NCBI GenBank assembly: GCA_035574255.1
Contig: DATLYZ010000079.1
Location: 35,390-99,389, forward strand
Source: Gemmatimonadales bacterium
Lineage (GTDB): Bacteria > Gemmatimonadota > Gemmatimonadetes > Gemmatimonadales > GWC2-71-9
Reading direction: 5' to 3'
DNA: 64,000 bases
Shown: in pieces, positions 8,688 to 11,501 of the stretch
Layout: each line of letters starts with the position of its first letter
Position numbering within the stretch: position 1 is the stretch's first letter
Program-made: the position numbers and the translations under genes
Notes under the pieces: model-generated
What the model was told of the DNA's origin: nothing
The model's input: only the letters and a program-made list of their open reading frames with translations
Database searches by the model: none

Positions 8688-9962
8688 TCAGGGTGCGGCC
8701 TGCTCGACGAGCGCGGCCACCTCGCGGAGCCGCGGCGCCACCAGCGGGGCGTCCGGCAGGGCGCCCGCCAGGGCTTCCACGGTCTTGAGGCCGTTGCCGG
8801 TAATGGCGAGGACCATCTCGTCGTCCGGCCGGAATCGCCCGGCCCGGGCCAGGGCGAGCGCGGCGGCCACGGTGACCCCGCCGGCGGTTTCGGTGAAGAT
8901 CCCGGCCTCCCGCGCGAGGAGCCGGATCCCCTCGACCAGCTCGGCGTCGCTCACGGCGGCGGCCCAGCCGCCGGTTTCCCGGATGGCGCGGGCGGCGTAG
9001 ACCCCATCGGCCGGGTTGCCGATCGCAATCGAGCGGGCGATGGTCCTGGGGATCTCGGGCACGACCTGGCCCTCCCCCCCCCGCTCGACCAGCCTCACGA
9101 TCGGCGCACACCCGTCCGCCTGCGCCCCGTAGAGACGCGGCGGCGGGCCGCTGGCGAGTCCCGCCGCGGTGAATTCCGCGAAGCCCTTCCGGAGCTTGGT
9201 CACGAGGGAGCCGCCCGCCATCGGCGCCACCACCGCGGTGGGGAGCCGCCAGCCGAGCTGCTCGACGATCTCGAAGGCGACGGTCTTGGAGCCCTCGCCG
9301 TAATAGCCCCGCAAGTTGACGTTGACGATCCCCCACCCGAAGCGATCCGCCACCTGGGCGCAGAGCCGATTCACGTCGTCATAGGTTCCGCGGATGCGGA
9401 CCAGGCGCGGCCCGTACACCGCGGTGCCCACGACCTTACCCAGCTCCAGATCCTCCGGCACGAAGATCCAGGCCGCGAGCCCGGCCCGGGCGGCGTGGGC
9501 GGCGACCGCGTTGGCCAGGTTGCCGGTGGAGGCACAGCCGACGGTGTCGAGCCCGAAGGCGCGGGCGGCGTTGATCGCCGTGGCGACGACGCGGTCCTTG
9601 AACGAGAGCGACGGGTGGCAGACCGCGTCATTCTTGATCCAGACCCGCGCGACACCGAGCCGGCGGGCCAGGGCCGGCGCCTCGACGAGCGGGGTGAACC
9701 CGCTGTCGGCCGACAGCGCCGGTGCCCCGTCGAGCGGCAGCCACTCCCGGTAGCGCCACAGGGACGGGGGCCGGCGCTCGATCTCGGCGCGGCTCGGCAG
9801 TGGGCGGGAGTCGGCGTACACCGGATCCAGGGGCCCCAGGCACTCCTCGCAAATCGCCACCGGCGCCGGATCATGCGCCAGGCCGCAATGGCGACATCGG
9901 AGCGGGAGGGCGCGGGGCGGTACCGCGCCGACGGCGGGCTCGGTGGCGAGCGCTGGGGTCAT
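8688..9962 (-). CDS. threonine-synthase-family PLP enzyme with N-terminal zinc ribbon (possible thiocarboxylate-dependent homocysteine/cysteine synthase)
   Basis: ORF 8688..10421. The homologous part starts at MTPALATE (ATG at 9962). It has CRHCG...CEEC and the PLP-lysine motif SLSFKDR. It lies 23 nt upstream of the carrier gene. Confidence 0.85.
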   Translation of the reverse strand: MTPALATEPAVGAVPPRALPLRCRHCGLAHDPAPVAICEECLGPLDPVYADSRPLPSRAEIERRPPSLWRYREWLPLDGAPALSADSGFTPLVEAPALARRLGVARVWIKNDAVCHPSLSFKDRVVATAINAARAFGLDTVGCASTGNLANAVAAHAARAGLAAWIFVPEDLELGKVVGTAVYGPRLVRIRGTYDDVNRLCAQVADRFGWGIVNVNLRGYYGEGSKTVAFEIVEQLGWRLPTAVVAPMAGGSLVTKLRKGFAEFTAAGLASGPPPRLYGAQADGCAPIVRLVERGGEGQVVPEIPRTIARSIAIGNPADGVYAARAIRETGGWAAAVSDAELVEGIRLLAREAGIFTETAGGVTVAAALALARAGRFRPDDEMVLAITGNGLKTVEALAGALPDAPLVAPRLREVAALVEQAAP

Positions 9963-10000
9963 GGGTCGGTCCTTCGGTTCGGGTAATCGGTCGCCGAGCA

Positions 10001-10037
10001 GCAAAACGAAACCGGCCGCTCGCGGGGAGCGGCCGGT
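10001..10037 (-). terminator. intrinsic terminator inside the 5' leader
   Basis: RNA ACCGGCCGCUC-cccgc-GAGCGGCCGGU (11 bp stem) followed by UUCGUUUUGC. It lies 39 nt upstream of the start codon. Confidence 0.7.
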
Positions 10038-10062
10038 CTGGACGATCAACGGCGCCAGGCTG

Positions 10063-10158
10063 TCAGGCGGCGCGCGTGGACCTCCCCGGTCGCTCCCCCA
10101 ACGGAGGACAGGGACAGAGGGCCATCGCGATAATTCGCGCCCGCACGAGACCGGCCAC
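10063..10158 (-). CDS. candidate leader peptide MAGLVRARIIAMALCPCPPLGERPGRSTRAA
   Basis: GTG start 9 nt after AAGGAGG. Two UGU Cys codons and a PP pair lie just before the codons that form the anti-terminator strand. UGA stop is at 10063-10065. Confidence 0.35.
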   Translation of the reverse strand: MAGLVRARIIAMALCPCPPLGERPGRSTRAA

Positions 10159-10227
10159 CGGGATGAGCCTCCTTGCCAGCAGACGTCAAGATCAAAACGC
10201 CCGGGCGACCACGCCGCGGGCACTCGC

Positions 10228-10256
10228 TTTTTAGCATTTGTTTTACGTGGCTGCAA
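10228..10256 (-). promoter_or_regulatory. sigma-70-like promoter candidate
   Basis: Minus strand TTGCAG, 17 nt spacer, TAAAAA, in an AT-rich patch downstream of the yjbQ stop. Assignment is uncertain. Confidence 0.3.
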
Positions 10257-10321
10257 TACGCGGCAAATCACCACGGACTCGGTTGTCGTGCCCTGGACGC
10301 TAGGGGCTGGGCGGGCGATTG

Positions 10322-10789
10322 TCAAGCCTCCGCGCTCGCCGGGCTTTCCCTCCGGGCCGGGCTCCGGCCCTCCTCCCCCATCACCTTGATGATGACCCGC
10401 TTCCTCCGCTGGCCGTCCCATTCGCCGTAGAAGACCCGCTGCCAGGGGCCGAGGTCGAGGGCTCCCCGAGTGACGGGCACGATCACCTCGTGCCCGATGG
10501 TGAGGCTGCGCAAGTGCGCGGCGGCGTTGTCTTCCCCGGTGTCGTTGTGCCGGTAGCGAGCGGGATCCCAGGGCGCGATGGTGTGCTCCAGCCAGTGCAG
10601 GATGTCATGCCAGAGGCCGCTTTCGTGGTCGTTCACGAACACCGACGCCGTGATGTGCATCGCCGACACGAGGACGAAGCCCTCCGCGACGCCGCTCTCG
10701 CGAACCTGGGCCTGAACCTCGTCGGTAATGTCAATGATCTCCTGCCGGCGTTTGGTGTGGAACCAGAGATAGTGGGTATGAGTCGCCAT
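10322..10789 (-). CDS. YjbQ/UPF0047 family protein (secondary thiamine-phosphate synthase family)
   Basis: ITDEV...[24 protein letters not shown]......P....Y.HN......NAAAHLRS is characteristic of YjbQ. Confidence 0.85.
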
Positions 10790-11102
10790 GGTCGGGAATC
10801 GGAGTACGGGTGCCGGGGATGGAATCGGGCGCCGGGAACGGACCCTCTGTCAGGTGCGGCTCGCCAGGCCCTCAAGCTATGGCGAAGGGCGGGGTGCCGG
10901 GAGGCGGCGTGGATGCGGCCCGACCCCGAGGAGCCCGCGGTGGCGGCCCTGGCCCGGGGGGCCGGATCCCGGACCGGCAGGCGGCCCGGCGGCGCCGCCG
11001 GCGGGTCGCGCGGATTCGGTACGCGGGCGGGTCGCGCTCAAATGGCCTGGTGCCGCGTAATCCCGGGTACGCCGCGCGCCGGGGGAGCGGTATCGTGGTA
11101 CC

Positions 11103-11501
11103 ATGCCGGCGACCCGCCACTCCACCCCACCCCATGAGCGGCTCGAAGCCTGGCGCGCCTGCCACGAGCTGCTCCTCGTGATCTACCGTGCCACGCGCAA
11201 GTGGGAGGCGGACGGAGCCCACGTCCTCATCCCCAGGGTCCACGACGCTGCCCTCGCCGCGGCCACCGCGCTCCGCCAGTTCCCCACCGCATCCGGGCCC
11301 CGGGATCGCGGACGCCTGTTGAGCGAGGCCGCGGGGGCATTGGGGTGCCTGGATTGCCTGCTCCTCGTGGGCCGGGACCTCCGCATCATTGACCCCGAGG
11401 AGGGCCGGCTCCTCGACGGATTCGTGACCCGGGCCACGCAACTGATCGGCGGGCTCCGGCGATCATGGCGCCGGCGCGGGGAGCGCGCCGGCGCGGGCTA
11501 G
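11103..11501 (+). CDS. four-helix-bundle protein (23S rRNA intervening-sequence protein family)
   Basis: RLEAWRACHELLLVIYRATRKW... and the overall helical pattern resemble TIGR02436-type proteins. This is a weak by-eye match. Confidence 0.55.
   Translation: MPATRHSTPPHERLEAWRACHELLLVIYRATRKWEADGAHVLIPRVHDAALAAATALRQFPTASGPRDRGRLLSEAAGALGCLDCLLLVGRDLRIIDPEEGRLLDGFVTRATQLIGGLRRSWRRRGERAGAG

Follow-up and report, generated by a model that had tools for sequence, protein, structure and literature searches.

A putative cysteine/methionine leader-peptide attenuator in tandem with a SAM-II riboswitch upstream of a MetM-like operon in Gemmatimonadales

The DNA analysed here, referred to as the window, is a stretch of 64,000 nucleotides (64 kb) from a metagenome-assembled genome of a Gemmatimonadales bacterium (GenBank assembly GCA_035574255.1, contig DATLYZ010000079.1, positions 35,390 to 99,389 of the forward strand). 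The locus of interest lies wholly on the minus strand and consists of three genes, encoding a ThrC-family enzyme resembling MetM, a sulfur-carrier protein resembling MetO and a MoeZ-type protein, preceded by a long leader. This leader contains an S-adenosylmethionine (SAM) riboswitch aptamer of the SAM-II class with a terminator (T1) and, downstream of these, a short open reading frame (sORF) with cysteine and methionine codons followed by a second terminator (T2). The arrangement points to a Cys/Met leader-peptide attenuator placed in tandem with SAM-II ahead of a MetM-like operon; each part appears to be of a known kind, while the combination appears to be new. The features are listed below in the order of transcription, with the basis of each call; MFE stands for minimum free energy structure and strands 1 to 4 are the segments of the proposed attenuator.

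10297 to 10325, minus strand: putative sigma-70-type promoter, -35 TTGACA (10325-10320), 17-nt spacer, -10 TAGCGT (10302-10297); read from the sequence
10210 to 10284, minus strand: aptamer of a SAM-II riboswitch (SAM_alpha, Rfam RF00521); scored at 42.9 bits where the gathering score is 36 (E 9.8e-8), over the full model (1-79)
10190 to 10221, minus strand: terminator T1, predicted expression platform of the riboswitch, stem GCCCGCGGCG-UGGU-CGCCCGGGC (10221-10199) and tail GUUUUGAUC (10198-10190); -17.0 kcal/mol
10168 to 10174, minus strand: Shine-Dalgarno sequence (SD) of the sORF, AAGGAGG, 9 nt before the GTG; read from the sequence
10063 to 10158, minus strand: leader sORF (M)AGLVRARIIAMALCPCPPLGERPGRSTRAA, GTG at 10158-10156, 31 codons and TGA at 10065-10063; from the sequence and relatives
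10108 to 10125, minus strand: putative regulatory codons, Met AUG (10125-10123), Cys UGU (10116-10114) and Cys UGU (10110-10108); from the frame comparison
10103 to 10128, minus strand: strand 1, 5' side of the 1:2 hairpin over the Met/Cys/Pro codons, its core GUCCUCC (10109-10103) pairing with GGAG-GAC of strand 2; MFE
10086 to 10098, minus strand: strand 2, anti-terminator strand, GGGGAGCGACCGG, which copies the 3' arm of T2 save one A; fixed-position shuffles and RNAalifold
10052 to 10073, minus strand: middle hairpin in the spacer between strands 2 and 3, holding the sORF stop codon (10065-10063); MFE
10002 to 10038, minus strand: terminator T2, made of strand 3 GACCGGCCGCUC (10038-10027), a loop, strand 4 GAGCGGCCGGUU (10021-10010) and the tail UCGUUUUG; consensus scan
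8688 to 9962, minus strand: MetM-like first gene, a ThrC-family pyridoxal phosphate enzyme with an N-terminal Cys4 ribbon; PF00291 and TIGR00260
8389 to 8664, minus strand: MetO-like carrier, a ThiS/MoaD-family sulfur-carrier protein with the C-terminus ...VVPAIAGG; PF02597
7223 to 8386, minus strand: MoeZ-type adenylyltransferase/sulfurtransferase with ThiF and rhodanese domains; PF00899, PF00581 and NF005902 at 518 bits

The putative promoter lies upstream of the leader and would place the transcript start near 10290 (minus strand). Its hexamers recur at the same positions in relatives (TTGACA or TTGCGC, 17 nt, then TAACGT, TAGCAT or TAACAT); the window copy, TTGACA-17-TAGCGT, was missed by a consensus promoter scan because its -10 element lacks the A at position 2 that the scan demands. 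The stop codon of the upstream YjbQ-family gene (10322-10789, minus strand) overlaps the -35 hexamer (10320-10325), so the transcription units are tightly packed.

SAM-II was the sole Rfam family found in the whole window at gathering thresholds. The P1 helix of the aptamer is paired in the Rfam alignment, and the loop and 3' tail were seen by eye to vary together between relatives, loop GCGGC occurring with tail AAAGCC and loop GCCGC with tail AAAGCG. T1 sits directly 3' of the aptamer, upstream of the sORF, and is homologous to the hairpin and U-tract found just before the SD and ATG in three relatives with short leaders (L164-L166; GCCCGCGGCAUUUGUCGCCCGGGCUUUUUUU). The MFE without ligand instead has the 5' half of the aptamer paired to the T1 region, a fold that is incompatible with T1. 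These data suggest that a SAM-II riboswitch with its own terminator controls the leader, and binding of SAM is predicted. A first-pass annotation, made by a model from the sequence of the window, had matched the leader to none of the SAM-I, SAM-IV, TPP and lysine riboswitch cores and had overlooked both the aptamer (10284-10210), inside which the region that it annotated begins, and T1 (10221-10190); the sORF module that it described would be the second of two switches. An Rfam search, which it had proposed as a check, did return this match, which covers only the 5' 75 nt and so does not explain the whole leader as a riboswitch: when positions 9000-11500 were searched at E values up to 10, the part that holds the sORF and T2 (10200-10000) was unmatched except for one chance-level microRNA match.

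The features that the annotation had listed in this second part, namely the SD, the GTG, the 31-codon sORF, the Cys codons, the 12/13 pairing and the terminator, were all found where it had placed them. Strand 2, GGGGAGCGACCGG, matches the complement of CCGGCCGCUCCCC, which is the 5' arm and loop of T2, at 12 of 13 positions with one A.C mismatch. The T2 stem (10038-10010) has 12 pairs and a folding energy of -24.4 kcal/mol, T2 ends 39 nt before the ATG at 9962, and it was the only terminator called by the consensus scan between 9500 and 10800. The 1:2 hairpin appears in the MFE of 10130-9998 and in that of the local segment, which has an energy of -29.0 kcal/mol. Because the MFE of the window attenuator holds the 1:2 hairpin, the middle hairpin and T2 together (z = -2.2), the predicted default state is termination. 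The folding energy of the leader as a whole was unremarkable (z = -0.69), so global stability provides no evidence. Pairing with the SD of the ThrC-like gene itself was not seen, and no other arrangement of a terminator with a Cys/Met ORF was found within the window.

The codon content of the sORF has some further peculiarities. Both Cys codons of the window copy are the rarer UGU, the neighbouring genes having 3 UGU against 13 UGC. The window and its closest relative, L081, encode C-P-C-P-P at this point (10103-10116 of the window, minus strand), and another relative, L168, encodes R-R-P-P-A-P. When EF-P is lacking, ribosomes can stall at Pro-Pro motifs, which would bring a further kind of pause to this site.

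Relatives of the locus were retrieved by the ThrC-like protein and not by the leader. SAM-II was present above the gathering score in 16 of the 20 nearest loci, lying directly upstream of the orthologous gene in 14 of them and ∼1 kb upstream, with another gene between, in two. The distance from the 3' end of the aptamer to the ATG was 37-77 nt in 13 of the 14 direct-upstream loci, in which the order was aptamer, one hairpin with U-tract, SD and ATG. In the window this distance is 247 nt, so that ∼175 nt of extra leader hold the sORF and T2. The long form was found in the window (WIN below) and in seven relatives (L081, L082, L083, L103, L167, L168 and L169), which represent approximately four lineages and whose ThrC-like proteins are 64-91% identical to that of the window. 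The SAM-II scores in the other long-leader loci ranged from 27.6 to 46.9 bits. The lowest belong to the L082 clade, where they fall just below the gathering score at 27.6-35.3 bits (L082, 2675-2748; L167, 903-976; L168, 901-973; L169, 909-983); the riboswitch may be drifting in this clade, whose sORFs are the richest in Met codons.

Other relatives carry less. L164-L166 have the riboswitch and T1 with neither sORF nor T2. In L163 (1016-1200) hardly any sequence separates the aptamer and what is left of the T1 5' arm from a T2 homologue, and the sORF is again missing; it resembles a leader that has naturally undergone deletion or fusion. P0018, P0020 and P0100 have short leaders, and P0036 and P0024 have another context, with panB upstream. 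As long, short and L163 forms all occur among the relatives, the sORF/T2 module appears to have been gained or lost as a unit. When the other loci were searched for more Cys/Met sORFs ahead of the ThrC-like gene, only one doubtful case emerged, most matches being the Cys4 N-terminus of the enzyme. This case, L104 (1290-1460), has a TTG-started frame that opens with LTCCSMRCRS (three Cys and one Met in eight codons) between aptamer/T1 and gene; a second terminator is not evident, and the module may be present here in a degenerate or different form. L004 (2838-2990) has a 127-nt leader with a second hairpin and U-tract and no Cys/Met ORF; its GCUCAUCC is complementary to the SD region of the gene, GGAUGAG, which suggests a different, translational add-on. 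Two further loci have a gene between the aptamer and the ThrC-like gene, panB in L097 (470-4230) and homoserine dehydrogenase in L018 (1813-3000); panB under riboswitch control is unexpected.

The alternative pairings of the second module are conserved. Both T1 and T2 are present as hairpins with U-rich tails in all eight long leaders, with T2 energies of -18.5 to -28.9 kcal/mol, and strand 2 ends 47-51 nt before T2 in every one. In seven of them no upstream segment complements the T2 5' arm better than the strand coming after the Cys/Met cluster. A shuffle test that accepted the 2:3 complement at any site was not significant for individual leaders and was replaced by a fixed-position test, which gave p = 0.035 for the window and 0.0007-0.011 for the relatives (1.2e-5 by Fisher's method over four lineages). 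When strand 4 was left out, the 2:3 helix closed the MFE in all eight leaders, with energies of -31 to -40 kcal/mol. RNAalifold gave a 2:3 helix in which one pair is G-C in four sequences and A-U in three, a compensatory change, and the strand-3 base of this pair co-varies with strand 4 as well (GCUC/GAGC versus GCCC/GGGC). L103 has unrelated T2 arms, GCCCCGGCU and GGCCGGGGU, and a correspondingly different strand 2, GGCCGGGGG, and retains both pairings; this sequence was misplaced by MAFFT, and its pairings were checked on the single sequence. Pair counts showed 87% of cells paired, compared with 24-49% when the partners were slid, and the covariation score exceeded all 500 shuffles. The 2:3 anti-terminator is mutually exclusive with T2 and backed by covariation, at a small depth of about four lineages. 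The 1:2 hairpin is strong in the window (-29 kcal/mol) and in L081 (-27 kcal/mol) and is present in L103. Of the topology of trp-type attenuators (1:2, 2:3 and 3:4) that had been proposed for the window, the 2:3 and 3:4 pairings are conserved, and a strong 1:2 pairing is confined to some members.

The coding signal was compared across the same leaders. All eight have an ORF whose position and phase with respect to strand 2 are the same, and its SD is good in four (window, L081, L083 and L103). The predicted peptides around the Cys/Met cluster and strand 2 are as follows.

WIN: ..IIAMALCPCPPLG-ERPG..
L081: ..IIAMAWCPCPPIW-ERPG..
L082: ..NACAAMCRCPLAH-GRPD
L167: ..NCMAICPLAP-GRPD..
L168: ..NCMAMRRPPAP-GRPD..
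L169: ..MKMISIMAMCPLAP-..
L083: ..TCIGICMCGCPIAI-ERPG..
L103: ..VCACMGMCMPRSLREQAGG..

The segment read as ERPG or GRPD is strand 2 and is conserved as RNA; in L169 a 1-nt deletion in strand 2 shifts the frame only downstream of the Cys/Met cluster. The N-terminal parts of the peptides are not conserved, the length varies from 26 to 48 amino acids, and the number and spacing of Cys residues vary. Over the 16 codons before strand 2 the eight leaders contain 3, 3, 5, 5, 6, 4, 4 and 5 Cys plus Met codons in frame, compared with 1-2 and 0-1 in the other two frames; the baseline in four neighbouring genes is 2.4%. The shuffle test of this cluster gave p ≤0.001 for L083, L103 and L169 and 0.016-0.044 for L082, L167 and L168, and was not significant for the window and L081. 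Within the sORF body 18 of 19 internal ATGs are in frame, as are 18 of 32 TGY (Cys) codons, the latter a modest excess; dinucleotide shuffles of such a short body keep the AT and TG counts and were uninformative on ATG/TGY abundance. In six leaders the distance between the last Cys codon and the core of strand 2 is exactly 12 nt, roughly as far as a ribosome holding that codon in the A site would extend, and the stop codon falls inside the spacer between strands 2 and 3 in all eight.

No leader has consecutive Cys codons: the window has C-P-C, and in the relatives Cys is mixed with Met, Ala, Arg, Gly and Ile. Two relatives have a single Cys with three to four Met codons, and because Cys falls to one where Met rises, a sensed set of Cys and Met is more likely than Cys alone. 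The suggestion of the first-pass annotation that Cys codons report the charging of Cys-tRNA is thus modified; Cys codons do lie just 5' of strand 2, and the regulatory codons would be a mixture of Cys and Met. Its central proposal, a switch between anti-terminator and terminator that depends on the sORF, is strengthened, since the frame, the Cys/Met cluster, the 2:3 pairing with compensatory change and T2 are kept in eight leaders from approximately four lineages. The alignment of upstream regions that it had recommended gave the same picture, with the sORF frame, the Cys/Met codons and the compensatory change at 2:3 and 3:4 all found in the long leaders.

These data suggest that the second module is probably a classical ribosome-mediated attenuator, which would sense the charging of Cys-tRNA and probably Met-tRNA, in series with the SAM-II riboswitch. 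A transcript starting near 10290 (minus strand) would meet two premature terminators before the MetM-like gene. With SAM bound, the pseudoknot would hold the 5' half of the aptamer, T1 would form and transcription would stop; with no SAM, the aptamer 5' half would pair with the T1 region and RNA polymerase would read on. A ribosome would then load at AAGGAGG/GTG and translate the 31-codon sORF. If Cys-tRNA, and probably elongator Met-tRNA too, were well charged, the ribosome would reach the stop codon in the 2-3 spacer, strand 1 would capture strand 2, and strands 3 and 4 would form T2, terminating transcription 39 nt before the gene. Poor charging would stall the ribosome on AUG/UGU/UGU, covering strand 1, and strand 2, which begins 12 nt beyond the last Cys codon, at the front of the stalled ribosome, would be free to pair with strand 3. 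The 2:3 pairing would block T2, and the MetM-like/MetO-like/MoeZ operon would be transcribed. In this scheme, in which translation of the sORF, stalling and the identity of the amino acids are what we infer from the conserved features, expression would need low SAM and poor Cys/Met-tRNA charging together.

A number of observations weigh against the attenuator. Taken alone, the window copy is no better than chance and is the weakest example, and the case rests on the relatives: three Cys plus Met codons within 10 codons, as in the window sORF, were equalled in 607 of 2000 dinucleotide shuffles, and a complement to the GC-rich T2 arm as strong as strand 2 was found somewhere upstream in 541 of 1000. 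A better complement of the T2 5' arm than strand 2 (-22.5 kcal/mol), GUGGCCGGUCU, lies at the start of the window sORF (10148-10158, minus strand). It is confined to the window, being absent in L081, and may be due to chance or form an extra link between sORF initiation and T2. The eight leaders are only about four independent lineages, three of which share most of the strand 2, 3 and 4 sequence, and the real covariation rests on one base pair and the divergent L103. In the L082 clade and L083 the 1:2 pairing is reduced to a local hairpin of 4-5 bp with a different sequence, and the SD is weak or absent in the L082 clade. The frame bias of TGY is absent over the whole inter-terminator region (18/18/2, that is 18 in frame and 18 in the +1 frame). 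The ATGs in frame might instead serve as alternative starts and not be sensed as Met, and Met starvation would also cut the charging of initiator tRNA, and so sORF initiation, which works against Met sensing. Finally, most relatives do without the sORF/T2 module.

Three other explanations were weighed. The segment between T1 and T2 might fold into a further aptamer or be bound by a protein or small RNA (sRNA), and so choose between 2:3 and 3:4, while the ORF is untranslated or its translation irrelevant. Conservation of the alternative pairings and of a long hairpin closed by 2:3 would be expected of such an RNA-only switch, the weak SDs of the L082 clade agree with it, and ORFs of ∼30 codons are common in DNA of 72% G+C. 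Its difficulty lies in the sequence 5' of strand 2, which is poorly conserved between lineages, unlike a ligand pocket, and yet keeps its in-frame ATG/TGY clusters; the stop codon is always in the 2-3 spacer, and the search of 10200-10000 described above gave no Rfam family beyond the chance-level match. We regard this explanation as unlikely. To a similar or very slightly greater degree we doubt that T2 is an additional terminator lacking its own sensor, acting as a fail-safe, generating an sRNA or being controlled by SAM-II at a distance, with the codons of the sORF incidental. That view finds support in L163, where the aptamer is joined almost directly to the T2 homologue, and in Sinorhizobium meliloti metA, where a terminator without a known sensor follows SAM-II and limits expression (PMC9373788). 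It does not account for the conservation of strand 2, with its fixed distance and compensatory change, or for a Cys/Met cluster 12 nt upstream of strand 2 and in frame with a start, and T1 keeps its own U-tract in all eight leaders.

Very improbable is a functional Cys-rich micro-protein, for example one that binds a metal or sulfur, with T2 merely its terminator. The good SD of the window and the retention of Cys residues would fit, but the peptides differ in length (26-48 amino acids), in N-terminal sequence and in how many Cys they hold and at what spacing; only one Cys is present in two of them, and in L169 the C-terminal part is in another frame. Attenuation at the Cys/Met codons of the sORF is the reading retained here.

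The downstream genes point to the pathway that the leader would control. A ThrC homologue, a ThiS/MoaD-type carrier and MoeZ under SAM-II is the gene set of the MetM/MetO thiocarboxylate pathway. In Streptomyces albulus this pathway converts O-phosphohomoserine to homocysteine via MetM, MetO and MoeZ, and Streptomyces metM is also under a SAM riboswitch, according to the account of Hasebe et al. (2024) given in 10.1101/2024.10.14.618325 and PMC12172450. The alignment of solved threonine synthases to the ThrC-like protein starts only at residue 61 or later, and the ThrC-like/ThiS/MoeZ synteny is kept in L081, L082, L097 and L168-L169. Judged by its ThiS and MoeZ neighbours, the SAM riboswitch and published work, the ThrC-like gene probably encodes a MetM-type homocysteine synthase, and the operon would serve homocysteine synthesis. 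A point against this assignment is that homologues 79-82% identical to the ThrC-like protein also adjoin panB (L170 and L171), and in L170 a GHMP kinase as well, which stands after the ThrC-like gene in place of ThiS; the L171 locus is too short to tell. With such close homologues beside panB or GHMP kinase, a true threonine synthase is a second candidate role for the gene.

The leader also bears on how the start of the ThrC-like gene is called. A stop-free frame in phase with the gene spans the whole leader (8688-10421, minus strand) and gives a mechanical ORF of 577 amino acids. Several database homologues have 446-451 amino acids, their starts probably being called too far upstream, inside leaders. 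With an open frame across the leader, automatic start calls for this gene tend to over-extend.

The host phylum is poorly studied and known mostly from metagenomes, and no paper linking Gemmatimonadota with SAM-II was found in the literature searched. The methionine pathway itself was described only in 2024, and the arrangement predicts how it may be regulated outside Streptomyces. SAM-II also precedes methionine-pathway genes, metZ and metA, with a terminator after the aptamer, in S. meliloti (PMC9373788). That organism belongs to the Alphaproteobacteria, whereas the leader described here is from Gemmatimonadota, precedes a MetM-like gene and has a second sensor module.

Short ORFs with Cys codons ahead of sulfur-metabolism genes are also known from mycobacteria, where such attenuators were predicted by Seliverstov et al. 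(2005; PMC1262725) and where the Cys codons of polycysteine leaderless sORFs couple ribosome pausing to the downstream genes (Canestrari et al., 2020; 10.1101/834739). The mycobacterial sORFs are leaderless, whereas the present one starts ∼130 nt after the presumed transcription start, behind an aptamer and T1, and is led by an SD. They have consecutive runs of Cys, whereas here Cys is interspersed with Met and Pro. Their output also differs, as Ms5788A acts on translation by unmasking the downstream ribosome-binding site, with no terminators found (10.1101/834739), and the output here would be termination at an intrinsic site with a U-tract, 39 nt before the gene. Membership in this polycysteine leaderless class (the Cys 'ribulon') was rejected on these three defining features.

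The leader is closer to the classical leader-peptide attenuators (E. coli trp, his, leu, thr and ilvGMEDA; actinobacterial trp and ilvB, PMC1262725), with which it shares an SD-led sORF and clustered relevant codons. Further common traits are the alternative 2:3 and 3:4 pairings, an intrinsic terminator close ahead of the first gene, and termination as the default outcome of folding. At the level of sequence it has what defines the trp, his, thr and ilv attenuators, with a 1:2 hairpin that is convincing only in some members. It differs in its Cys/Met codons, its Gemmatimonadota host and its position after a complete riboswitch with its own terminator. The thr leader mixes Thr and Ile codons and the ilv leaders Leu, Val and Ile codons, which the mixture of Cys and Met recalls. 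No attenuator with Met codons, or serving a met operon, was found described in the literature searched, and the present leaders suggest that attenuators with Met (and Cys) codons exist despite the conflict expected from initiator tRNA charging.

Riboswitches and leader-peptide attenuation are usually described as the alternatives of different lineages for the same pathways, and here both appear to act on one transcript. Two signals are also read by the single 5' leader of Salmonella mgtA, which combines a Mg2+ riboswitch with the Pro-codon sORF mgtL. The mgtA leader has its sORF within the riboswitch fold and relies on Rho for termination, whereas in the present leader there are two separable modules, each with an intrinsic terminator, and some relatives lack the sORF module with T1 either intact (L164-L166) or not (L163). 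The tandem SAM and adenosylcobalamin riboswitches on metE form another two-signal leader, in which two terminators in series need both signals to be permissive. The strongest form of our interpretation is put forward tentatively, as somewhat less than an even prospect: a two-input leader in which a SAM riboswitch and a leader peptide that reads both sulfur amino acids would be joined in series via two intrinsic terminators, built of separable modules and being the first known attenuator with Met codons. The riboswitch-only, fused and riboswitch-plus-attenuator forms found among close relatives would offer a natural series on the assembly of signal-integrating leaders.

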